A stretch of 64,000 nucleotides of DNA, taken from positions 12,734 to 76,733 of the forward strand of contig JAZUPN010000025.1 of assembly GCA_045605245.1 (NCBI GenBank), given 5' to 3'. The notes below the pieces were generated by a model that had not been told where the DNA came from, did no database searches, and saw only the letters and a program-made list of their open reading frames with translations. Below are positions 3,177 through 33,496 of the stretch, one piece after another; the stretch's first letter is position 1, and every line of letters starts with the position of its first letter. A program made the translations under genes and the position numbers. Source of the DNA: Alistipes sp. GTDB taxonomy: Bacteria > Bacteroidota > Bacteroidia > Bacteroidales > Rikenellaceae.

Positions 3177-5066
3177 TTACACAGCCTCGGCTTCGGTCGA
3201 GTTGTACTTGTCCAGATTCTCAATCAAATCCTCCTCAATGCGCAGGTTGTCGATGATGAAGTTCTGACGGTCGAACGTATTCTTACCCATATAGAACTCC
3301 AACATATCGTGAATGGGATCATCTTTGGTCAGGCGTACTTTGTCCAAACGCATCTTCTCGCCAATAAACTCACCAAACTCTTCGGGCGAAATCTCTCCCA
3401 AACCTTTGAATCGAGTGATCTCGGCCGTCGAACCGCACTTAATGATAGCGCGCTGTTTCTCCTCCTCGCTGTAACAATAGTGCGTCTCTTTCTTATTGCG
3501 CACGCGGAACAGCGGTGTCTGCAATACGTAGAGGTGGCCCTGACGAATCACGTCGGGGAAGAATTGCAGGAAGAAGGTCATCATCAGCAATCGAATATGC
3601 ATACCATCGACATCGGCATCGGTTGCGATGATCACCTTGTTGTAGCGCAGGTTATCCATATCCTCCTCGATGTTGAGGGCAGCCTGCAACAGGTTGAACT
3701 CCTCATTGTCATAGACCACCTTTTTGGTCAGACCAAAGCAGTTCAGTGGCTTACCGCGCAACGAGAAGACGGCCTGCGTCTGCACGTCGCGGCTCTTTGT
3801 GATCGAACCCGATGCCGAGTTACCCTCTGTAATGAAGATCATCGACTCCTCGGCGCGATCGTTCTTGTCGCAGAGGTGAATCTTGCAGTCGCGCAACTTT
3901 TTGTTATTGAGCGAAACCTTCTTCGCAATCTCACGCGCCTTCTTCTGTACGCCCGAAATGGCCTTGCGCTCCTTCTCGTTTTCGAGAATCTTTTTGTTCA
4001 GTACGCCTGCCGTATCGGGATGTTTGTGCAGATAGTTGTCCAACTCCAATTTGAGAAAGTCAATCACATACTGACGAACGGTCGGACCGTCGGGTTCCAT
4101 ATCCTTCGATACCAATCGAGTCTTGGTCTGCGAGTCAAAACCGGGCTCCTCGACATTGACACTGATAGCCGCCACAATCGAGGTGCGCACGTCCGACGGA
4201 TCGTAATCCTTCTTATAGAACTCCTTAACCACCTTTGCAACCGCCTCGCGCAGAGCCGCTTGGTGCGTACCTCCGCGGAAGGTATTCTGGCTATTCACGA
4301 ACGAGTAATAGGTTTCGCCATAGCTCGTACCGTGAGTAATTGCCACCTCGATATCCTTACCTTTGAGGTGGATAATGGGGTAGAGCGGCTCCTCGCCCGA
4401 CATATTCTCGGTCAGCAGATCCAATAGACCATTCTTCGAGTGATACGACGTACCGTTGAACTTAATCGTCAAACCCTGATTCAAATATGTATAATTGCGC
4501 AAACGCTGCTCGATGTACTCCATATGGTACTCGTAATGGCCGAATACATCCTCATCGACGATGTAGCTGATCATCGTACCATTCTTCTCGGTAACGCCGC
4601 TTTCACGTCTGTCGCTGATCTCCAAACCGGTTTGGTAATTGACCGTGCGAGCCTCGCCATCGCGGACGCTTCGAGCCGTAAATTCGCTCGACATCATATT
4701 CACTGCCTTGACACCGACACCATTCAGACCTACCGTCTTCTTGAACGCGCCCGAACCATATTTACCACTCGTATTGATCTTCGATACGGCATTGGCCAAA
4801 CTGTCGAGGGGAATACCTCGACCATAGTCGCGTACCGTTACACGCTTGTTTTCGTCGATTGTGATCTCGATGACCTTACCCGCACCCATAATAAACTCGT
4901 CGATAGAGTTATCGACCACCTCTTTGAGCAAGGTGTAGATACCGTCATCGGGTTGCGAGCCGTCGCCCAAGTTGCCGATCCACATACCCGGACGCAGACG
5001 CATCTGGTCGCGCGTGCTGAGGGTTTTAATGTGGGAATCGTCGTATTGTACTGTTGTTTCAGCCAT
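3177..5066 (-). CDS. parE: DNA topoisomerase IV subunit B (GyrB/ParE family)
   Basis: 629-aa ORF with a GHKL ATPase N-terminus ([15 protein letters not shown]) and a TOPRIM region ([18 protein letters not shown]). Confidence 0.88.
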
Positions 5067-5085
5067 TATGTAGTTTCTCCTGTTT

Positions 5086-5811
5086 TTAGTCGTTCATATT
5101 TTTCAAAACCTCTTTGGCAGCGACCATCTGTTCGCGTACCATATCGCTTAACTCCTTCAACTCCATCGAAGCAACCACCTCGGCTGGAATCGGATCGAGT
5201 ACATCAAGACGGAATGTGTGTCGCCAAGGCAGTCGCCAGCCATTGGCGAAGAGCGTATCCGAACCGTGCATTACGACGGGCAGAATAGGTACGCCCGCCT
5301 CTTTTGCCAACGTGAATGCTCCCGATTTGAAACGGTGAATCTCGCCATCTTTCGAGCGGGTGCCTTCGGGGAAGATGGCCACCGAAGCACCGCGACCGAG
5401 CCACTTTTTACCCAAAGTCGTAACCTTCGTCATTGCGCCCGACGATGAGCGGTCGATGCATATATCGCCGTGCAGCGTGAGCATCTGTCCGAAGAAGGGA
5501 ATACGGAACACCTCGCGTTTCGATACCCAACGGAAGTTGAGTGGGATTTGATAGAGCATAGGAATATCGACCATACTTGTATGGTTGATCGTAATCACAT
5601 AGGCCTGCTTGCGGTTGATCTTCTCAACGCCGCGAACGATCTTGCGCCACTTGGGCCAGCAAAAGAAGATACGAGTCAGCACGCGCGACAGCTCGTGAAT
5701 GCAACGACGTGCGGGGTCAAACGGTCGCAACAGCACCAAAAAGATGGCCGAAAGAATCAGTACCAAGGTGCAGGCGATGCCTAAAACGATGTAATGAATT
5801 ATTGCTAACAT
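5086..5811 (-). CDS. plsC: 1-acyl-sn-glycerol-3-phosphate acyltransferase
   Basis: 241 aa with an N-terminal TM segment, the HxxxxD motif (NHTSMVD) and FPEGTRS. Confidence 0.8.
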
Positions 5812-6061
5812 AGTCTTTCTAAATGAGTTTTAGGTGCGAAATGGGGTTAGAACACACTACGCACCGTATTTAATCCTGCAATTTTAGCAAAATTTTGGCT
5901 GATTTCCGCTATTTATAATAGGTAAGTTATCAACATTTAATCAAAATGTGTGTAAAATTTCCGCAGAATCGTTACCTTTGTCCCGTCGCAAGGAAGGGAG
6001 AGGAGAATACAATGAGACTTGCGGCAAGGTAAATTTGTAATAAATTTAACATTGAAACACA

Positions 6062-6946
6062 ATGAAAGCATTTGTATTCCCCGGCCAGGGCTCGCAATTC
6101 TCTGGTATGGGTAAAGATCTCTATGAGAACTCTCCTGCTGCGAAAGAGCTTTTCGAAAAGGCTAACGAAATCCTCGGTTTCCGCATCACAGACATTATGT
6201 TCGCAGGTACTGACGAAGAGTTGAAGCAGACCTTCGTAACCCAGCCTGCGGTATTCCTCCACTCGGTTATTATGGCAAAGGTGTTGGGCGAAGAGTTTAA
6301 GCCTGATATGGTTGCAGGTCATTCACTTGGTGAGTTTAGCGCATTGGTTGTGGCTGGTGCATTGGATTTCGAAGATGGTCTGCGTCTGGTGGCAAAGCGT
6401 GCCGCTGCAATGCAGAAGGCTTGTGAGGCACAGCCCTCGACTATGGCCGCAGTGCTTGGTCTTGAAGATAAGGTGGTTGAGGATATCTGCGCCGAGATCG
6501 ATGGTGTGGTTGTCGCTGCTAACTACAATTGCCCCGGCCAGCTCGTTATTTCAGGTTCGATCGAGGCTGTCGATGCCGCTTGTGAGCGATTGAAGGCTGC
6601 GGGTGCGCGTCGTGCATTGCGCCTGCCCGTTGGCGGTGCTTTCCACTCGCCTCTGATGGAGCCTGCGAAGGTCGAACTGCAAGCAGCAATCGAAACGGCC
6701 GAGTTCAAGACTCCGATTTGCCCTGTATATCAGAATGTTGATGCAAAGCCTTATACCGATCCCGAACAGATTAAGGTAAATCTTATTGCACAGCTTACGG
6801 CTCCCGTTCGTTGGACCTATATCGTTGAGAATATGTTGGCTGATGGCGCAGACTCGTTTATGGAGTTGGGCCCTGGTGCCGTTCTTCAAGGTCTGATTAA
6901 GAAGGTCAGCCGCGATGTTGAGGCTACTTCGAAGGCTACGCTTTAA
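6062..6946 (+). CDS. fabD: Malonyl-CoA:ACP transacylase
   Basis: 294 aa with FPGQGSQ and the GHSLGE nucleophile elbow. Confidence 0.92.
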   Translation: MKAFVFPGQGSQFSGMGKDLYENSPAAKELFEKANEILGFRITDIMFAGTDEELKQTFVTQPAVFLHSVIMAKVLGEEFKPDMVAGHSLGEFSALVVAGALDFEDGLRLVAKRAAAMQKACEAQPSTMAAVLGLEDKVVEDICAEIDGVVVAANYNCPGQLVISGSIEAVDAACERLKAAGARRALRLPVGGAFHSPLMEPAKVELQAAIETAEFKTPICPVYQNVDAKPYTDPEQIKVNLIAQLTAPVRWTYIVENMLADGADSFMELGPGAVLQGLIKKVSRDVEATSKATL

Positions 6947-24887: not shown

Positions 24888-25667
24888 ATGGCAGCAAAAA
24901 TGCAAACAGCCGAGCGCGTGTCGCAGACCGATAGCTCGGATAATTACGTTTTTCAGCGTTCGTTGCTGGCATATTATCACGCTGCAAAGTTGGTCAGCGG
25001 TATGGTGTTGGAGATTGGTACGGGTAGCGGTTATGGTATCAATGTAATTGCTCCGTCGGCCACTCGTTTTATGACCATCGATAAGTTCGAGACGAAGATC
25101 GATACCTCCGATATGGATAATGTCGAGTTTCGACAGATGACTGTTCCTCCGATTGACCTTCCGTCAAGCAGTGTCGATTTTGTCATTTCGTTTCAGGTGA
25201 TCGAGCATATTAAGGACGATGTTGATTTCGTGGCGGAGGTCTATCGCGTGCTGAAACCTAATGGCGTTTTTATCGTTTCGACACCTAATGCTGCGATGTC
25301 GCTCACGCGTAATCCGTGGCACGTGCGCGAATATTCGATTGATGAATTTGATCGCTTGATGGGTAACTATTTCGCTGATATTGAGCGTTGTGGTGTGTTC
25401 GGTAACGAGAAGGTAATGAATTATTACGAGAAGAATCGTGCAAGTGTGCGCCGTATTACGAAGATCGATTTTCTCGATTTGCAACACCGCCTGCCGCGCT
25501 GGATGTTGAAGATTCCATACGATATTATGAATCGCCTGAATCGCCGTTTGCTATTGGTGCGCAACCGCAACCTGACGACCGATATCGCAATGGATGACTA
25601 TCGCATCGCCCCTGTCGCCGACGGCTGTTTCGACCTCTACTACATCGCCCGCAAGGTGGAGGAGTAG
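24888..25667 (+). CDS. Class I SAM-dependent methyltransferase
   Basis: 259 aa with SAM motif I (VLEIGTGSGYG) and LKPNGVFIVSTPN. Confidence 0.75.
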   Translation: MAAKMQTAERVSQTDSSDNYVFQRSLLAYYHAAKLVSGMVLEIGTGSGYGINVIAPSATRFMTIDKFETKIDTSDMDNVEFRQMTVPPIDLPSSSVDFVISFQVIEHIKDDVDFVAEVYRVLKPNGVFIVSTPNAAMSLTRNPWHVREYSIDEFDRLMGNYFADIERCGVFGNEKVMNYYEKNRASVRRITKIDFLDLQHRLPRWMLKIPYDIMNRLNRRLLLVRNRNLTTDIAMDDYRIAPVADGCFDLYYIARKVEE

Positions 25668-25672
25668 TCCTA

Positions 25673-25716
25673 TTGAAAATAGGCGGTAGTCAAAAAACTG
25701 CCGCCTATTTTTCAAT
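25673..25716. terminator. Bidirectional rho-independent terminator shared by the methyltransferase gene (+) and the WYL cassette (-)
   Basis: TTGAAAATAGGCGGTAGT-loop-ACTGCCGCCTATTTTTCAA long hairpin. Confidence 0.65.
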
Positions 25717-25736
25717 GGGTATGTTAATTTATGTTA

Positions 25737-26348
25737 TTAATTCAAGTTCCTTAACCTTGACTCGATATATTCAATTAACAGCTCCTTATATTGTCGATTA
25801 ATTATATCCTCAATTGTTACACCTTTATATTTTTCGTAGATTGATATGCGAATTATAGGAACTCCTATGATAATAGATGTAACATCTTTAATGAAATCAT
25901 AGAATGCTCTTTGCTTCCATCTAGTTCGGTTTTGATCTAATAGATCAAGATCTATCACACTATTCCCAAATTGCTTATCGGTGGAACTATTGTGGGCATA
26001 TTTCCCGTATGTTAAACAGTTGTGCTCATAGTTCTTGCAAAACTTTTTATAATTTTCAATATTTACATTTCTATTATTTGTGTAAATTGTAGAGTTAAGA
26101 GTTGAAAGTCGATAGCGATTAAAATGGTTTTCTTCATCAAACTCTATGATGAAATTGGGAGTGTCAATGTCATATGCGCCTACTCTTGTAGGAGCATCAT
26201 CAAGAATGCCACCTAATCTTTTGTAAATATTTATAATTTCATCATAGTAAGCAGATGCTTGCAGTTCATTTGCTGATAATTTAGTGTGATTGCCTTTGTC
26301 GTAATACTCTTGACACACTTGGGCTAAATAAGTTTGTTTTTTTGCCAT
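25737..26348 (-). CDS. Hypothetical protein with Vsr/DUF559-like PD-(D/E)xK nuclease-fold signature (last gene of WYL cassette)
   Basis: 203-aa ATG-initiated ORF in AT-rich DNA, 19 nt downstream of the preceding ORF. It contains GAYDIDTPNFIIEFDEENHFNRYR and, about 80 aa later, RWKQRAFYDFIKDVTSIIIGVPIIRISIYE. This is analogous to the D...E.DG..H ... D..R..L...G..vlR layout of DUF559/Vsr-like endonucleases. The fold call is an inference. Confidence 0.55.
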   Translation of the reverse strand: MAKKQTYLAQVCQEYYDKGNHTKLSANELQASAYYDEIINIYKRLGGILDDAPTRVGAYDIDTPNFIIEFDEENHFNRYRLSTLNSTIYTNNRNVNIENYKKFCKNYEHNCLTYGKYAHNSSTDKQFGNSVIDLDLLDQNRTRWKQRAFYDFIKDVTSIIIGVPIIRISIYEKYKGVTIEDIINRQYKELLIEYIESRLRNLN

Positions 26349-26367
26349 ATAGTTTATTGCAATATAA

Positions 26368-26682
26368 TTAGTAGTTTAAAATAATCCACTCAATAGTGAT
26401 GCCCATACAAGACTCGTGCCAATCAAGTGAGTCAAATAATTCCATCGGTTTGGTTGTACGAGCAACAAAATTAATAGTGTTATAGTTGTTGTCGTTAGCT
26501 TGTTGAAGAATATAACGAAAATAGCTCTCGCTTTGCGTAAATTCCTCAATAATAGGCACTACTAAGATTTTGTCTTTGCCATTTGTTGCCTCCATATTGA
26601 TGCAGGCCGCCTCAATCTCTCGGATATTGTTATACCCAAGTGCAGAGAGTGCATTTAGAGTTTGTTGTTTAATGCTGTCCAT
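26368..26682 (-). CDS. Hypothetical 104-aa protein (third gene of WYL cassette)
   Basis: ATG-initiated ORF 12 nt downstream of the preceding ORF. I recognise no family. Confidence 0.5.
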   Translation of the reverse strand: MDSIKQQTLNALSALGYNNIREIEAACINMEATNGKDKILVVPIIEEFTQSESYFRYILQQANDNNYNTINFVARTTKPMELFDSLDWHESCMGITIEWIILNY

Positions 26683-26694
26683 GTTTTTATCGTT

Positions 26695-27051
26695 TTAATC
26701 GTGGTAATAATCGTATAATTCATAGTAGTCTATGTCGTACCAATCATTGAAACCCTCGTCGGCACTTGGGGGTATTGCAATACTCTGTTGTGTCGTGTCA
26801 ATAACTGCTTCTGTGCGATACTCGCGATAGCGAACCAAACGATTCTCGTAGTCAAGTTCAGCAATATCACTTGCACTCTTTGATGGGTCGAGGTTTCGCC
26901 AATGTGATTCATAGTGTTGCTGTGATGTTGGGCGAAACCACTCGTCATATACAGCTACAATCAGCGTATATATCATAACTACATAGACAAACGGCTTTGC
27001 TAAATGCCAAATAATAGTTATTATCTCTTTTAAGTCGGTTCGCTCATCCAT
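26695..27051 (-). CDS. Hypothetical single-pass membrane protein with aromatic/acidic C-terminal tail (second gene of WYL cassette)
   Basis: 118 aa with one hydrophobic helix (IITIIWHLAKPFVYVVMIYTLIVAVY). The C-terminus is FNDWYDIDYYELYDYYHD. It starts 4 nt after the WYL gene stop. Confidence 0.5.
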   Translation of the reverse strand: MDERTDLKEIITIIWHLAKPFVYVVMIYTLIVAVYDEWFRPTSQQHYESHWRNLDPSKSASDIAELDYENRLVRYREYRTEAVIDTTQQSIAIPPSADEGFNDWYDIDYYELYDYYHD

Positions 27052-27055
27052 ACAT

Positions 27056-27961
27056 CTATATCTTATTTCGTTCTATGGCTCCAAGTAGTGTTTCATATAT
27101 TCGTTGTCGCAATGAATGTGGTTTAATGATTTCGATAGAACGGCTACGTGATAGCAGAGCCATTACAAAATCATTTGTTATGCGTAGTTTAAGCCCAATA
27201 GTAATCGAATCCTCGTTTTCTTCTATTATTCTTTGCGTGTGATGCAGAGGCAGACTCTTAACAAACGATCCGTCTAATCGATCATATTTAATAACAATAT
27301 CTTCAACCTGTTGATTCCCATCTGCCCATACTCCAAAACTTTCTGAAAATTGTTGCTTTATTTCTTCCATTGGTCTAGACTTGAATTTTCTATGTTCAAG
27401 GTATTTTACACTTTGAACTCGCTCCAACGCATAGACGCGGAGCTCTCCGCCTTCATTGTAGCCGACTATATACCAACGGTGTTGCGACTCTTTGAGTAGA
27501 TGCGGAGATATAGTATGTTTTCGTAGCTCATTGCAATTGCGGTAATGCTCATATTCAATCTCTATCATTCTACGTTCTCGAATGGCGAACAAAACTTCGT
27601 GGAATGAATCTCCGATAGGTGGTAATCTGTGCTCTGCATCAATGCAACTTACAAGTGAAGGATCATCTATGCGACTTAATAATTCGAAATTTTGTAGCAG
27701 CTTTTCGTATTCATGAGCTGTTTCGCCACGTTCTAATATGCAATAGCCTTTTCTTGCTCTATTGTAACCTATTCTGATGCCAAATATATCTTGAATGGCA
27801 GTAAAATCACGCTGTAATGTTCGAATAGTTATCGACTCGTCGTGATCGCCAAGACCTTGTGTCGCATAATTTATTAATTCATCTTTACTTAATATAGCAT
27901 TGGGATAACTCAATTTGTTGGTAATCCTAACTATTCTTCGTATTAAGGCTATGGTGTTCAT
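27056..27961 (-). CDS. wHTH-WYL-domain transcriptional regulator (BrxR/CapW-like architecture)
   Basis: 301 aa. The N-terminal DeoR-like wHTH is ...SITIRTLQRDFTAIQDIFGIRIGYNRARKGYCILE. The central WYL domain is ISPHLLKESQHRWYIVGYNEGGELRVYALERVQSV. A C-terminal extension domain follows. Confidence 0.8.
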   Translation of the reverse strand: MNTIALIRRIVRITNKLSYPNAILSKDELINYATQGLGDHDESITIRTLQRDFTAIQDIFGIRIGYNRARKGYCILERGETAHEYEKLLQNFELLSRIDDPSLVSCIDAEHRLPPIGDSFHEVLFAIRERRMIEIEYEHYRNCNELRKHTISPHLLKESQHRWYIVGYNEGGELRVYALERVQSVKYLEHRKFKSRPMEEIKQQFSESFGVWADGNQQVEDIVIKYDRLDGSFVKSLPLHHTQRIIEENEDSITIGLKLRITNDFVMALLSRSRSIEIIKPHSLRQRIYETLLGAIERNKI

Positions 27962-27976
27962 ATTGTTAATTTTTTA

Positions 27977-28010
27977 CAAAGATAATATAGTGTCGCGACA
28001 AAATATGTCG
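27977..28010 (-). promoter_or_regulatory. Promoter of the WYL cassette with an embedded palindromic operator candidate
   Basis: The minus strand reads TTTG-TCGCGACACTATAT-TATCTTTG, with the -7 box on the plus strand at 27977-27984. The perfect 10-bp palindrome TGTCGCGACA (27991-28000) sits in the spacer. An extra TGTCG half-site is at 28006-28010. Confidence 0.4.
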
Positions 28011-28040: not shown

Positions 28041-28086
28041 AAAAATACAAAGGCCCTGAATCCGTTATTGGAATCAAGGCCTTTGT
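28041..28086 (-). terminator. Rho-independent terminator of folD
   Basis: CAAAGGCC...GGCCTTTG stem followed on the minus strand by TATTTTT. It separates folD from the WYL cassette promoter. Confidence 0.5.
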
Positions 28087-30178: not shown

Positions 30179-30727
30179 ATGAAAAAATGGAAATGTACCG
30201 TATGTGGTTATATTCACGAGGGCGATTCGGCTCCCGATAAGTGTCCTCTTTGCAAGGTTGGCGCAGATAAGTTTGTCGAGGTTGTAGAGCAGGAAGGCGA
30301 TCTTCAATTCGTTGATGAGCACGTTATCGGCGTAGCCAAGGGCGTTGATGAGGAGGTTTTGCAGGGCTTGAAGGATCACTTTATGGGTGAGTGCACCGAG
30401 GTAGGTATGTATCTTGCAATGAGCCGCCAGGCAGACCGTGAAGGTTATCCCGAAATCGCCGAGGCCTTCAAGCGTTACGCTTGGGAGGAGGCAGAGCACG
30501 CAGCCAAGTTTGCCGAGCTGTTGGGCGAAGTTGTTTGGGATACCAAGACCAATGTATATAAGCGTATGATGGCCGAGCAGGGCGCGTGCGAGGATAAGAA
30601 GCGTATTGCAACTCTTGCAAAGAAACTGAACCTTGACGCAATCCACGATACCGTACACGAAATGTGTAAGGATGAGGCTCGCCACGGCAAGGGTTTCGAG
30701 GGCCTTTACAAACGCTACTTCAAATAG
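30179..30727 (+). CDS. Rubrerythrin with N-terminal rubredoxin-like domain (reverse rubrerythrin arrangement)
   Basis: 182 aa. The N-terminus carries CTVC...CPLC. The diiron four-helix bundle carries ExxH motifs ([18 protein letters not shown]). Confidence 0.85.
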
Positions 30728-30742
30728 TAGGGTAGCCCCCTA

Positions 30743-30790
30743 AACCAACAGCCTCCTGAACCTTTCGATTCAGGAGGCTGTTGGTTTTTT
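30743..30790 (+). terminator. Rho-independent terminator of the rubrerythrin gene
   Basis: AACCAACAGCCTCCTGAA-loop-TTCAGGAGGCTGTTGGTT followed by TTTT. Confidence 0.7.
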
Positions 30791-31511
30791 GTAGATATGA
30801 TTCATCACATATAATGCAATTGATTGATCTCTTTTTGTCGCCAAAAAACATTTTTGAATTTACAAGGAAAATTATTCAGCCAAATGAAAACACGTCAATT
30901 AAAACGATTTGATTATGTTAAATAGAAAATATGGTTATTTTACAATTCCCAGTAAGGGTATAGAGTGCCATTTTTTTAATATTAACCAAAAGTTCAAGAA
31001 TCGAGTTATTAGGTGGAACATTGGGAGGCATACACAACGTGCTGATTTTTTCACTGCAAATTACATATAAATAAATTTCCGCTATATAATGCTGAACTCT
31101 CCGATGTGTCCAATACTCAAAGAACCCTGAACAGAACATCCTAAACACCAATCATATGCATTTAATACTACGTATGAAATACAAGAAATGGAACTATTAG
31201 AGGATACGTATAATACGTTGGGCTTGCCGAACGCTAATAATAGAGGACGGCTCAACTCTAACAATTCCATTACAAGTGCAAAGTTACTAAATGGAGTTAA
31301 GAAAACCAAAAAAACACATATTTAACATAATGCAAATATTATTTCATCATCTTTGCAGTGGAATTATTCACCTTTTAATAGACAACACAATGAGTCAAAG
31401 AGTTATAGAGATTGCAGAACTCCCGCAACCTCAGCCCGACATTCTCGGTAAAACGGGTAAGAATCTGCATTATGCAGTATTAACAGATGTAAACCGTTAT
31501 CGTAACTATGC

Positions 31512-31745
31512 CTACCGCACATCCTGCCTTTCTCGTGCATTGGTCTCCATCAAGAACTCTTTATAATCATTAGGTAGCTTAATACCAAGACTCTGTTCAA
31601 ACGCCTCAATATCCTCCCGCTTTGCAGGGGAATACCACCATTCGGTTAGATCGTCTGCGAACTTTTGCAATTCGTCAATTACATCTGCTGATGTTGTGGG
31701 AAATGGTACTATTGCGTCAAAAAGCAAGGATAAAATAGTACTCAA
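31512..31745 (-). pseudogene. Truncated SMI1/KNR4 (SUKH-1) family immunity-protein fragment
   Basis: The 77-aa ORF contains ...REDIEAFEQSLGIKLPNDYKEFLMETN..., the characteristic N-terminal SMI1/KNR4 motif. The frame then terminates about 10 codons later. I saw no obvious continuation in the other frames. Confidence 0.45.
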
Positions 31746-32013
31746 ACAAGGTGATAGATTAGTTACTCTTCGTCGAAATGTCCGTCATAATGGCAAAAAA
31801 ATAGCCGATAAGAATTGGATTCTTACGGCTTATGATGAAACAGCAGGCGATGACGCAAGTGCTATAAGCGGCACCAATCAAGGTCAAGCTGCACAGACCC
31901 CTGCTGATTCTGTCGGCAAAGATACACAAAAGCTGGCAAAAGCCAAAGCCTCGGCAGATTTCATAATTATCAAATATTATTTAGGGTACTCATTTCCCAA
32001 TAATCTCTACTGA
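31696..32013 (+). CDS. Orphan 105-aa ORF (GTG start), possibly the C-terminal remnant of a larger gene
   Basis: The ORF overlaps the start of the SUKH fragment by 50 nt and the end of the XRE gene by 7 nt. It contains ...KIVLKQGDRLVTLRRNV...KNWILTAYDE.... I can name no family with confidence. Confidence 0.25.
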   Translation: MGNGTIASKSKDKIVLKQGDRLVTLRRNVRHNGKKIADKNWILTAYDETAGDDASAISGTNQGQAAQTPADSVGKDTQKLAKAKASADFIIIKYYLGYSFPNNLY

Positions 32014-32459
32014 ATTGTGTATGCCTCGAATGATTTGTCAGAATATAGAATAATTACACGCTCAATGTTGGCCGAGTTTTTCGCTGAAGATACGATATTT
32101 TCGATTGTTCCTTTGGTCGAATTTATTTCATTGACCGAATGAGATACAGAATTAGTATTTGATCGGATCGAAGAGTCGGCTGCGGTGTTATTCTCAACCA
32201 CATTGCTACGATTGCTCGTGCCATCAAATTTTTGCTGAACGTCTGCTTCTGAACGATACATTTGATCTGCATCAAGCAAGAGCCAATCCGGATTCAGTGT
32301 CGGAAAGCGACGCAGAATCTTAACCAGAAAATCGAAGCTTGGTTTGTTTCTTCCTGACAGAATATGAGAGATACTCGAAGGCTGTATTTCGAGAATTTCA
32401 GCCAAGCGACTTGACGAGAGTTTCTCGCTTTTCATTAATTTCAGCAATTTTTCGCGCAT
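32007..32459 (-). CDS. XRE-family helix-turn-helix transcriptional regulator
   Basis: 150 aa. The N-terminal HTH is LSSSRLAEILEIQPSSISHILSGRNKPSFDFLVKILRRFPTLNPDWLL. The C-terminal half is low-complexity and Ser/Asn-rich. Confidence 0.75.
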   Translation of the reverse strand: MREKLLKLMKSEKLSSSRLAEILEIQPSSISHILSGRNKPSFDFLVKILRRFPTLNPDWLLLDADQMYRSEADVQQKFDGTSNRSNVVENNTAADSSIRSNTNSVSHSVNEINSTKGTIENIVSSAKNSANIERVIILYSDKSFEAYTIQ

Positions 32460-32469
32460 AATCGTAAAT

Positions 32470-32502
32470 TTTTACAAATATAACACTTTTTTATTTGTAA
32501 AA
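32470..32502. promoter_or_regulatory. Perfect 11-bp inverted repeat (TTTTACAAATA / TATTTGTAAAA, 11-nt spacer) just upstream of the XRE gene
   Basis: The arms are at 32470-32480 and 32492-32502, which is 11-43 nt upstream of the XRE ATG (32457-32459). This is a candidate autoregulatory operator. Confidence 0.35.
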
Positions 32503-33101
32503 CAAGCGCTGATACACTTTTGTAAAAATGTTAATTGTTCAAAACTTATTTACAATTGTAATAACGGTCGGCCTATTGAAATTAATGACATATATTATCT
32601 GTAAGTTTTACGTGATATAAAATGCCGCAACGTGCTGATAATTAAAGCGTATATTTGGCAAGTGTCTTGTATGAGCACCTTGTCTTGTTTATTCTCGTTA
32701 ATGCCTCCTATGTGTTAATCTTTTTATTGATATAAAACTCGCAAACGATTGATTTATAGTGTCTATGTGTGTCGGTATTTCAAATATTGATCAGCGATTT
32801 ATCCTGTATTTGGTTGCTATTTGCGCGCGCTGTTGCCTATATGTGTATGATTTACAAATCGCAAATATTAACAATTGATATTGGATTACAAATGTGTAAT
32901 TTGTAAATATTTACATCTTTACAAAAGTAACAATACCCCACTCTGCTCTTGTAAATTATTGATTTTTCTTTGCTTATCAATGACTTATCTTTGATGATTG
33001 TTAATAAAAGTGTTGATTTGATAATTATGTTAAATAGATAAATAAAGGGCAGCTAACAAAATAGCTACCCTTCTGATATATAACTTATTATATATTTACA
33101 A
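32471..33101. repeat. Dispersed array of at least 9 copies of the heptamer TTTACAA/TTGTAAA in a 650-bp AT-rich non-coding region
   Basis: Exact copies start at 32471, 32495, 32520, 32549, 32851, 32901, 32918, 32949 and 33095, in both orientations. Partial copies are at 32556, 32886 and 32910. Confidence 0.55.
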
Positions 33102-33109
33102 TCCTTGTT

Positions 33110-33496
33110 CTATGCGCGCAGCATTGCGGCTATTTCGGCAAACTCGTCTGAGGTTAAATTTAGCTTTTCCTTGCGAAAATCAACATCAGATTCGGTATTC
33201 ATAGGGATCAGATGTATGTGAGCGTGCGGAACTTCGAGTCCGAGGACTACCATTGCGACCTTCTTACACTCTATTTTACATTTGATTTGTTCTGCTACCC
33301 TCTTTGCGAATACGATCATCTTCTCCAATGTCTGATCTTCGAGATTAAACAGGTAATCAATCTCCTGTTTGGGAACAACGAGTGTGTGTCCTTTCATTAA
33401 CGGATTGATATCAAGAAATGCGTAAAAGTTCTCATCCTCGGCCACCTTGTAGCTTGGGATTTCGCCTGCGATTATGCGTGAAAAAATTGTTGCCAT
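33110..33496 (-). CDS. HIT-family (histidine triad) protein
   Basis: 128 aa with the HAHIHLIP histidine triad. Confidence 0.88.
   Translation of the reverse strand: MATIFSRIIAGEIPSYKVAEDENFYAFLDINPLMKGHTLVVPKQEIDYLFNLEDQTLEKMIVFAKRVAEQIKCKIECKKVAMVVLGLEVPHAHIHLIPMNTESDVDFRKEKLNLTSDEFAEIAAMLRA

Follow-up and report, generated by a model that had tools for sequence, protein, structure and literature searches.

What is a short, AT-rich operon doing between two ordinary chromosomal genes of an uncultured gut bacterium of the Rikenellaceae, an Alistipes species known from metagenome-assembled genomes (MAGs)? The operon, here called the cassette, lies in a 64,000-nucleotide stretch of contig JAZUPN010000025.1 (the window, to which all coordinates refer unless a locus is named). 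It consists of four ATG-initiated open reading frames (ORFs), g1 to g4, on the minus strand from 27961 to 25737, between folD and a SAM-methyltransferase gene. The original prediction saw in it an undescribed defence or abortive-infection module headed by a WYL-family regulator. From comparison of its sequence with related loci, we give about an even chance to the reading that it is a modular, DNA-targeting operon of defence type, in which g2 and g3 form a constant core, the gene behind them is a swappable effector (a DUF7255 protein being one option) and the WYL protein is an optional throttle. The elements of the locus are the following.

24888-25667, convergent to the cassette: class I SAM-methyltransferase gene, downstream neighbour
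25676..25711: bidirectional hairpin terminator common to g4 and the convergent methyltransferase gene, downstream cassette boundary
25737..26348, minus strand: g4, DUF7255 protein of 203 amino acids (aa), in the interchangeable terminal enzyme slot (Pfam PF23913)
26368..26426: left-hand breakpoints of the recombination that swaps the effector, at the 3' end of g3 (homology limits against loci L084 and L089)
26368..26682, minus strand: g3, predicted restriction-endonuclease-like fold, 104 aa (AF2 model and Foldseek)
26695..27051, minus strand: g2, single-pass membrane protein, 118 aa (one hydrophobic helix, no family match)
27056..27961, minus strand: g1, WYL transcription regulator with a marginal WCX match, 301 aa (Pfam and PADLOC WYL matches)
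27977..27984, minus strand: Bacteroidetes-type -7 box TAtcTTTG (promoter alignment and motif class)
27996..28010, no strand: palindrome CGACATATTTTGTCG, candidate operator of the WYL regulator (motif count and conservation)
28049..28084, minus strand: intrinsic terminator of folD, upstream cassette boundary (folding energy)
28983-28108, minus strand: folD, upstream neighbour of the cassette

Exchange of the terminal gene at a fixed slot

Contigs encoding an identical FolD or close variants of g3 served as sister loci. The slot between folD and the methyltransferase gene occurs in five alleles, in which the terminal enzyme may be a DUF7255 protein, a GIY-YIG nuclease or a uracil-DNA glycosylase (UDG).

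Allele A: WYL-g2-g3-DUF7255 (window, L001-3, L144)
Allele B: WYL-g2-g3 followed by a 73-aa N-terminal domain joined to UDG (L084)
Allele C: g2-g3-GIY_YIG_2 nuclease, no WYL gene (the commonest form by far)
Allele D: g2-g3-UDG, no WYL gene (L103, L106)
Allele E: cassette-less, with Acyl_transf_3 encoded on the opposite strand (L086; 98.8% identity in the flanks)

Near-identical chromosomes thus carry different genes at this position. The flanks of the DUF7255 form (window and L001-3), of the adaptor-UDG form (L084) and of the acyltransferase form (L086) are 97-99% identical. L084 matches the window at 97.9% identity as far as 26426, inside the 3' end of g3, and its homology resumes at 25666; in L089, which carries the GIY-YIG gene, homology ends at 26368 and resumes at 25708. 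Between L103 (UDG) and L107 (GIY-YIG) the terminal gene is the sole difference, with 97-98% identity on both sides and a left breakpoint 12 bp past the g3 stop codon. The UDG domain matches the NCBIfam model for DNA-deoxyinosine glycosylase (TIGR04274) with 136 bits (cut-off 80), and the GIY-YIG domain matches PF20815 (GIY_YIG_2) at 1e-31. A single g3 variant of allele C, P0147, is indexed in 136 collection blocks, and DUF7255, one of four terminal-enzyme options, is the rarest in this species group. The WYL gene is optional as well: in most sister strains it has been removed by a precise deletion from the g1 ATG to the g2 ATG, which leaves g2, g3 and the effector gene intact and places g2 directly behind the -7 box and leader.

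Synonymous divergence (dS) between the window and L097 is 0.28-0.30 in g2 and g3, compared with 0.63 in folD and 1.02 in the methyltransferase gene, and a g2-g3-UDG block is 94% identical between backgrounds whose flanks are 82-87% identical. Judged by these values, the cassette moves between lineages by recombination or horizontal gene transfer (HGT). It is also found in the same slot across species with flanks only ~80% identical, which marks the slot, on sequence grounds, as an old hypervariable locus and not a recent insertion. An empty-site comparison of the methyltransferase-folD junction is provided by L086, where the cassette is missing and the acyltransferase gene stands instead. The cassette is accessory, its alleles varying or being absent between close strains and being exchanged; occupancy of the slot is old across the clade.

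In L084 the UDG gene is directly followed, at 4988-5035, by 48 bp that repeat the 3' end of folD in direct orientation, with 95.8% identity to the folD end of the same strain; a different terminator comes next. The repeat may be a footprint of recombination or an old att-like scar. We considered and rejected an origin of the cassette as an integrative element, as the repeat occurs in L084 only and in no other allele, the window included, and no integrase is present.

A wider survey took in about 46 related loci, with five g2-g3 lineages of 33-98% identity at two or more chromosomal sites. In every complete g2-g3 locus, one of four DNA-enzyme types follows 4-35 bp after g3: DUF7255, a GIY-YIG nuclease, a UDG of the deoxyinosine-glycosylase type, or a fourth, nuclease-like domain that has no Pfam family. 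None of the ~46 loci has a g3 that lacks such an enzyme or is followed by another type of gene. Distant g2-g3 pairs, 33-49% identical to those of the window and located at other sites, precede the same set of enzymes.

L096: WYL-g2-g3-UDG
L146: WYL-g2-g3-GIY-like
L147: g3-DUF7255
L113 and L114: g2-g3-GIY_YIG_2
L005, L006, L031 and L120-124 (Alistipes MAGs, flanked by meaB and a ykuD-like gene): WYL-g2-g3-DUF7255, the last bearing one of two N-terminal extensions
L115 and L149: WYL-g2-g3 and the fourth, Pfam-less domain
L150: same lineage as L115 and L149, with UDG

The original prediction had treated the WYL gene and the three genes behind it as one unit. Its core stands, in that g2 and g3 co-occur with a DNA enzyme at every locus, but g4 is swapped and the WYL gene is optional.

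An N-terminal adaptor of ~73 aa is common to UDG, DUF7255 and fourth-type proteins. The UDG protein of L084 and P0013, a DUF7255 protein of 326 aa, have 37% identity in it (E 2e-9), and the UDG gene of L150 and the effector of L115 have 89.5%. Among the loci examined, the adaptor was seen in g2-g3 cassettes only; the window's own DUF7255 is without it. Because DUF7255 is positionally equivalent to a nuclease and a glycosylase and shares the adaptor, we infer by analogy that it is a DNA-acting enzyme. The N-terminal domains of P0016 and of the GIY-YIG protein were also tried as homologues and have no similarity. In L115, a protein of 472 aa with weak matches to AAA/STAND-like P-loop NTPases is encoded convergently to the g2-g3 cassette (3676-5094, minus strand); it is possibly a neighbouring defence gene.

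Operon anatomy, promoter and regulator

The gaps between the four ORFs are 4 nt (g1/g2), 12 nt (g2/g3) and 19 nt (g3/g4). The folD terminator hairpin has a folding energy of -26.3 kcal/mol (z = -7.7) and is followed by UAUUUUU, and the terminator after g4 folds with -19.5 and -23.3 kcal/mol on its two strands (z ~ -6.1). The cassette (25737-27961) has a G+C content of 36.3%, whereas the window as a whole has 47.9%, folD 55.5% and the methyltransferase gene 48.5%; an equal richness in AT is found in just 0.6% of 2.2-kb windows. Most of the original description of the locus is borne out by these data: a single four-ORF operon with ATG starts, short gaps and terminators of its own, a WYL-family regulator at its head, an AT-rich insert between the methyltransferase gene and folD, and no integrase, transposase or phage structural gene within ~5 kb of the cassette. 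The neighbouring SAM-methyltransferase was considered as a cognate DNA methylase and rejected; it is present in all alleles, including the cassette-less one, and is a generic class I enzyme with only weak matches, of BioC/UbiG/ArsM-like type. The exact methyltransferase protein of the window found no match in the contig index.

The -7 box is unchanged across an alignment of eight cassette promoters. The complete signal, TTTG-N17-21-TAnnTTTG, has 11 matches in the window against 0.82 expected and is a promoter signal in real use there. In the cassette promoter a TTTG lies just 14 nt upstream of the -7 box, so that only the -7 box is canonical. The Bacteroidetes-type promoter ascribed to the cassette is thus confirmed in its downstream half, but its upstream element is off-consensus.

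The palindrome CGACATATTTTGTCG is perfect, lies 11 bp upstream of the -7 box and covers the -20 to -35 region. Its pattern, CGACA-N5-TGTCG, has a single match in the 64 kb against 0.08 expected. It recurs at an equal distance from the -7 box upstream of seven to nine homologues of g1, those of other genera included; it is conserved in L096, L006, L031, L008, L007 and L026, with the variant CGACA-N5-GGTCG in L011/L015. The cargo of the palindrome-bearing loci differs, and the regulators tested against g1 have 52-71% protein identity to it. In alleles from which the WYL gene has been deleted, the -7 box is retained and the cargo genes are intact, with decay of one half of the operator; in WYL-less L089 it is the left half of the palindrome that is degraded.

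The g1 protein matches Pfam WYL (PF13280) at 3.6e-11 with 43.3 bits (cut-off 21.8) and the PADLOC WYL model at 5.9e-24. Its match to Pfam WCX (PF25583; E 8e-5, 23.3 bits) falls just under the cut-off of 23.9. Weak WCX matches are also found in the g1 homologues of L115 and L120, and g1 aligns to the WYL-WCX region of DriD, residues 150-292. Its N-terminal region matched no helix-turn-helix (HTH) family at E<=1 in any library scanned; a pattern read by eye, RTLQRDFxxIQDxFGIxIxY..xKGY, together with the conserved operator suggests a DNA-binding winged HTH (wHTH) there. A phmmer search of the PDB ranked PafBC (3.8e-5) and DriD (2.4e-4) ahead of CapW (0.014-0.058) and BrxR (0.84). As far as its sequence goes, g1 is a generic member of the HTH-WYL-WCX superfamily and not specifically a BrxR or CapW, and since it is nearer to PafBC and DriD than to these, the term "BrxR-like repressor" expresses an analogy and not membership. 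The wHTH-WYL-WCX regulator of BrxR/CapW kind that was originally proposed has a clear WYL domain, a possible WCX domain just under its cut-off and a presumed wHTH read by eye, and its closest sequence affinity lies elsewhere.

BrxR binds within its own promoter, at an inverted repeat whose halves are 5 bp apart, and known defence genes adjoin 48% of its homologues (PMC9122601). CapW senses single-stranded DNA (ssDNA), which releases it (PMC11662680). Three features favour g1 as an autorepressor: the position of the palindrome over the -20 to -35 region, the intact cargo of WYL-deleted strains and the decay of the operator in those strains. Most likely, g1 represses the cassette until a nucleic-acid signal, for example ssDNA arising from damage or infection, frees it. 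We word repression as the probable mode of action because DriD and PafBC, which have the same WYL architecture, are activators (PMC10853764).

A second AT-rich stretch of the window, at 30700-33400 (G+C 0.31-0.38), lies between a rubrerythrin gene (30179-30727) and a HIT-family gene (33110-33496) and encodes an HTH_3 protein on the minus strand (32007-32459). The corresponding slot of sister strains is occupied by an Acyl_transf_3 gene (L100), by genes for family-less proteins of 276 and 74 aa (L105/L108) or by a gene with a weak REP_ORF2-G2P match (L097). The stretch looks like another hypervariable hotspot, ~3 kb from the cassette. A gene of metallo-beta-lactamase fold with a match to Pfam Anti-Pycsar_Apyc1 (PF23023) is found in L088 (5213-5995), with equivalents in L097-L112; the match is a precomputed annotation of these sister strains, ~4 kb from the cassette. 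Being present in all strains, this gene probably encodes a housekeeping phosphodiesterase.

The core proteins and the DUF7255 family

Both core genes evolve under purifying selection, with dN/dS ratios of 0.17-0.32 for g2 and 0.16-0.25 for g3, and are on that account real genes. As predicted, g2 is a single-pass membrane protein: it has one hydrophobic helix, at residues 17-35, with a mean Kyte-Doolittle hydropathy of 1.88. Its C-terminal tail, DWYDIDYYELYDYYHD, is acidic and aromatic and is kept in versions of 37-55% identity. No family match was found for g2 in the profile libraries scanned, which included Pfam, PADLOC and PHROGs, and a word-indexed protein search returned three clusters only.

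The g3 protein likewise has no family match, and only five real clusters were found for it among 1.84 billion representatives. The AF2 model of g3 (pLDDT 83.7, pTM 0.76) has the topology alpha-beta-beta-beta-alpha-beta-alpha-beta. Its best Foldseek neighbour is EcoT38I (E 3.9e-3, probability 0.99, TM 0.52). A tRNA-splicing endonuclease also has probability 0.99, with an rmsd of 2.6 A over 72 residues, and the other neighbours include the Cap4 nuclease domain, XisH and BamHI; the E-values are modest, none being <= 1e-3. According to the model, g3 has a restriction-endonuclease-like fold. The nuclease-like signature had been assigned to g4 in the original prediction; by structure it is g3 that has this fold. 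Neither a canonical D...(D/E)xK motif nor a conserved lysine on strand 3 was found in the g3 homologues, in which the invariant residues are E31, E46, E47 and D84.

None of g2-g4 had been placed in a named family. This was incorrect for g4, which matches Pfam DUF7255 (PF23913), a family that is named though uncharacterised, at 6.6e-38 with 130.2 bits (cut-off 27) over profile positions 2-154 of 156. Acidic, His and Arg residues make up its invariant cluster (D60, E69-x-DEENHFNRYR and RWxQRAFYD), and its AF2 model has a pLDDT of 84.7 and a pTM of 0.84. A sequence-profile search of the PDB with g4 gave 0 matches. When DUF7255 was aligned with the fourth effector type by hhalign, the RWKQRAFYD...IRIS segment aligned weakly (P = 0.0068, probability 5.6). 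The DUF7255 proteins of 315-326 aa were examined as possible g3-g4 fusions and rejected, their N-terminal domains being unrelated.

The family has hundreds of members, 352 of which were found as homologues, and 80 loci were returned from species-representative genomes. It ranges over Bacteroidota, Acidobacteriota, Actinomycetota, Chloroflexota, Planctomycetota, Bacillota, Proteobacteria and two archaea, and most of 77 loci, in many phyla, have DUF7255 without g2-g3. The commonest neighbour is a g1-like WYL gene (12 of the 77 loci), always upstream and on the same strand. The cargo between the two varies: there may be none, a single small protein, membrane-bound or secreted, that has an acidic tail, a protein of 150 aa, or an N6-methylase/HATPase protein of ~1,000 aa together with a family-less protein of 300-395 aa. 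The 137 flanking proteins are spread over 130 Pfam families. Among them are a Type ISP restriction-modification (RM) enzyme, a TOTE primase-helicase, DinG, GmrSD, Mrr, ResIII, N6-methylases, SMC/LmuB-like ATPases and a Schlafen/NERD helicase. Of the large neighbours checked, about half are of RM or defence type and the rest are housekeeping, a count made without a background control which suggests that DUF7255 neighbourhoods have a defence flavour.

On mobile DNA, DUF7255 was absent from 50,697 GenBank phage records and was found on five plasmids, Actinobacterial or Bacteroidota, and in 17 IMG/VR contigs, of which 16 represent one prophage-like element. The Arthrobacter plasmid contexts were set aside as uninformative, all neighbours there being hypothetical. 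The 16 near-identical predicted viral contigs (L127-L142) carry a homologue of ~41% identity (match 6001-6564) beside genes with weak matches to Bacteroides phages SJC01/10/16; this copy is probably carried by a prophage. Literature searches for DUF7255 (PF23913) and for GIY_YIG_2 (PF20815) yielded no mention of either.

Several other arrangements of the family were observed. The gene order dnaK - DUF7255 - DUF6078 is kept in Segatella baroniae, two Prevotella and the flavobacterium Bergeyella cardium (L018 8018-11107, L019, L020, L022), and is either a stable non-island context or a transferred block. A larger WYL-headed operon consists of the WYL gene, an N6_Mtase and HATPase_c protein (~830-1,000 aa, with a weak PADLOC mad2-like match), the 300-395-aa protein and then DUF7255 (L014 5096-10606, L027 1298-6726, L043 3351-8653). 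This may be a further methylase-linked system, likewise uncharacterised, that makes use of DUF7255. Other Bacteroidales have WYL-headed cassettes in which a helical, family-less protein of ~90 aa directly precedes or follows DUF7255 (L007 10628-10900, L008 3619-3879, L011 9697-9978, L015 9691-9984). DUF7255 is also fused to an N-terminal von Willebrand factor A domain in a 649-aa protein of a Dethiobacter MAG, and has long C-terminal extensions in proteins of 451 and 308 aa from other phyla (fusion and extension loci: L045 1923-3872, L062 9923-11278, L046 2446-3372).

Weighing a defence role

If the cassette is a defence operon, its target would be the foreign DNA of a phage or plasmid, and the terminal enzyme would be the effector that damages this foreign, possibly modified, DNA. 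The g3 and g2 proteins would target, tether or license the enzyme, and the effector would be swapped within populations under diversifying selection. Where present, the WYL protein would bind CGACA-N5-TGTCG in its own promoter and hold the operon off until ssDNA or another nucleic-acid signal releases it. Membrane tethering and the binding of DNA or effector are guesses from the features of g2 and g3, the coupling of g2-g3 to the effector is presumed from their co-occurrence, and a defence function would follow by guilt by association. Since constitutive, regulator-less alleles predominate, the effector is probably not autotoxic, which makes direct attack on foreign or modified DNA likelier than abortive infection. 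The abortive-infection effector of the original prediction is accordingly disfavoured: the WYL gene is deleted in most sister strains with g2, g3 and the effector gene intact.

The operons regulated by BrxR and CapW (BREX, CBASS, RM and other systems) resemble the cassette in three ways: a WYL regulator gene, in g1 with a marginal WCX match, comes first and has the same orientation as the rest, its promoter contains a palindrome whose halves are 5 bp apart, and the cargo varies among homologues (PMC9122601). They differ in that g1 has no specific affinity to either regulator (E 0.84 and 0.014, against 3.8e-5 for PafBC), the cargo here matches no known system and the regulator is deleted in most natural alleles. 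Like Brig1, Brig2, Dag1/2 and type IV (modification-dependent) restriction, the terminal genes encode presumed DNA-targeting enzymes in AT-rich, horizontally exchanged loci. Brig1 and Brig2 are UDG-fold glycosylases that act as stand-alone antiviral effectors in AT-rich regions (PMC11078745; bioRxiv 10.1101/2025.10.29.685425), and a UDG-fold enzyme fills the effector slot of sister alleles; that enzyme is of the family-6 (deoxyinosine glycosylase) type and is set beside Brig1/2 by description. Unlike Brig1, Brig2 and type IV enzymes, the enzyme here is always preceded by g2-g3 and often bears a dedicated N-terminal adaptor.

CBASS, Lamassu, Avs and retrons combine a constant core with unrelated effectors at a fixed position, which are exchanged by recombination. 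The core of the cassette, in contrast to theirs, is tiny (118 + 104 aa), contains no NTPase, cyclase or reverse transcriptase, and has no sequence relationship to them. With the DriD-didA and PafBC regulons the cassette shares the WYL architecture, these being the closest solved relatives of g1, and also a small membrane protein as the first regulated gene and repair-type enzymes downstream (PMC10853764). It differs from both in being accessory, allele-swapping, AT-rich and horizontally exchanged and in having a dispensable regulator. For DUF7255 (PF23913), of which g4 is a full-length member and which has no described function, the additions made here are the positional equivalence with nucleases and glycosylases, the linkage to WYL genes and a confident model without structural neighbours.

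As originally predicted, the cassette corresponds to no described system: PADLOC v2 gave no match beyond the regulator, literature searches found no description, and a preprint on metagenomic defence selection mentions none of these components. A phage lysis or morphogenesis module, which had been named as an alternative, is likewise unsupported, with nothing significant for g2-g4 in PHROGs, no g4 family member among the 50,697 phages and no g3 in IMG/VR.

A number of observations weigh against a defence role. PADLOC-DB v2.0.0 gave no match at E<=1 for g2-g4 and none at E<=0.1 for the genes that replace g4, those for GIY-YIG and UDG among them. The closest solved relatives of g1 are DNA-damage activators and not defence repressors, and the UDG alternative belongs to a bona fide repair family. 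Many DUF7255 genes stand alone beside housekeeping genes, such as dnaK (HSP70), fusA (EF-G), gyrA, glyA (SHMT) and that of a GH94 enzyme. The slot is conserved across the clade, and the cassette is in part like a resident locus; g2-g3 and the terminal gene could also be independent neighbours with a shared promoter. Foldseek found no significant structural neighbour of g4, the best being E 1.1 with TM < 0.25 in the PDB and E 0.16 in BFVD. The ExDxxxH and DxxK...G...R motifs of DUF7255 resemble those of Vsr/DUF559, but a Vsr/DUF559-like endonuclease was dropped as a candidate for want of support from hhalign, which aligned E. coli Vsr (sequence checked against 1CW0) to a different region with P = 0.07; a regex search of all fetched loci gave one DUF559-like candidate.

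The serious rival to defence, if an unlikely one, is a DNA-damage-response cassette, in which g1 would be an ssDNA-sensing activator of DriD/PafBC type, g2 a membrane protein that halts division as DidA does, and the terminal gene a repair enzyme (deoxyinosine glycosylase, incision nuclease or DUF7255). The ranking of PafBC (3.8e-5) and DriD (2.4e-4) ahead of CapW and BrxR fits this view, as do the NCBIfam "DNA-deoxyinosine glycosylase" equivalog in the UDG alternative, the frequent position of DUF7255 beside stress or housekeeping genes such as dnaK, and the documented WYL regulators of damage responses (PMC10853764, PMC10693628). It does not account well for the finding that, within one species, the slot has enzymes of unrelated chemistry or, in L086, none at all. 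Repair genes usually belong to the core genome, and the cassette is AT-rich with an HGT signature. The loss of g1 in most strains, with the -7 box and g2-g3-effector kept, fits a dispensable repressor better than an essential activator, and Bacteroidetes already have a LexA-type SOS system (PMC8565304). Decidedly unlikely, in our view, is a hotspot with two or three independent tenants, where the terminal gene would by itself constitute a restriction-like defence (type IV-like or Brig-like) and g2-g3 an unrelated module sharing its promoter. DUF7255 does occur without g2-g3 in most of the 77 loci, the swap breakpoints lie exactly around the terminal gene, and single-gene glycosylase defences exist (PMC11078745). 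Against such independence, ~46 loci in five lineages and at least two sites always have g3 and then one of four enzyme types within 4-35 bp, and the adaptor common to three of these types was seen only in g2-g3 cassettes among the loci examined.

The terminal genes could also be selfish, homing-endonuclease-like elements that compete for a site after g3 and co-convert its flanks, with g2-g3 as their home, which we consider very unlikely. GIY-YIG is a classical homing-endonuclease family, the nucleases at the insertion point are mutually exclusive, g2-g3 is more alike between strains than the outer flanks, as in a co-conversion tract, and the BFVD list for DUF7255 is rich in "restriction/homing endonuclease" entries, none of them significant. 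A glycosylase, however, is not a homing enzyme, DUF7255 is missing from the GenBank phages and stably single-copy in many genomes, and the dedicated WYL regulator upstream of it in 12 loci would be unexpected for a parasite. Most improbable of all is a toxin-antitoxin or addiction module, in which the terminal enzyme would be the toxin and its specific inhibitor either g3 or g2, the latter through a DNA-mimicking acidic tail. A small operon with a presumed DNA-damaging enzyme, a regulator upstream and a tail reminiscent of DNA-mimic inhibitors could be so interpreted. Pairing of type II toxin-antitoxin kind is disfavoured because the same g2-g3, at least 86% identical, is paired with three enzymes of unrelated folds; a specific fit would be conceivable only via the adaptor, which the window's DUF7255 lacks, and no toxin-antitoxin family was matched in Pfam or PADLOC.

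A defence-type operon with a swappable effector thus remains the reading we prefer. A WYL-fronted, defence-like operon with a nuclease-type effector is of an already known kind, and there are many candidate defence systems. What is new is the chassis of g2 and g3, the four-way exchange of effectors among near-isogenic strains in nature, and the fold of DUF7255. Tentatively, one might go further and see in g2-g3 a minimal immunity "chassis" that arms at least four unrelated DNA-damaging enzymes and is re-armed by swaps in gut Bacteroidales, with DUF7255 as a new nuclease or DNA-modifying fold and the WYL protein as an optional damage-sensing throttle. A natural experiment is at hand, as there are near-isogenic wild strains whose sole difference is the effector (DUF7255, GIY-YIG or UDG) or whether the regulator is present. 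It raises the questions of how the choice of effector relates to phage type, whether g2-g3 licenses the enzyme and what the WYL throttle contributes. Should the damage-response explanation be true instead, Bacteroidota would possess a repair module that varies between strains under the control of a WYL protein. Were the cassette a defence system, it would rank with the smallest that combine exchangeable effectors with a constant core, would give a first functional handle on DUF7255, a family of many bacterial phyla and some archaea, and would add to the poorly charted immune repertoire of gut Bacteroidales.

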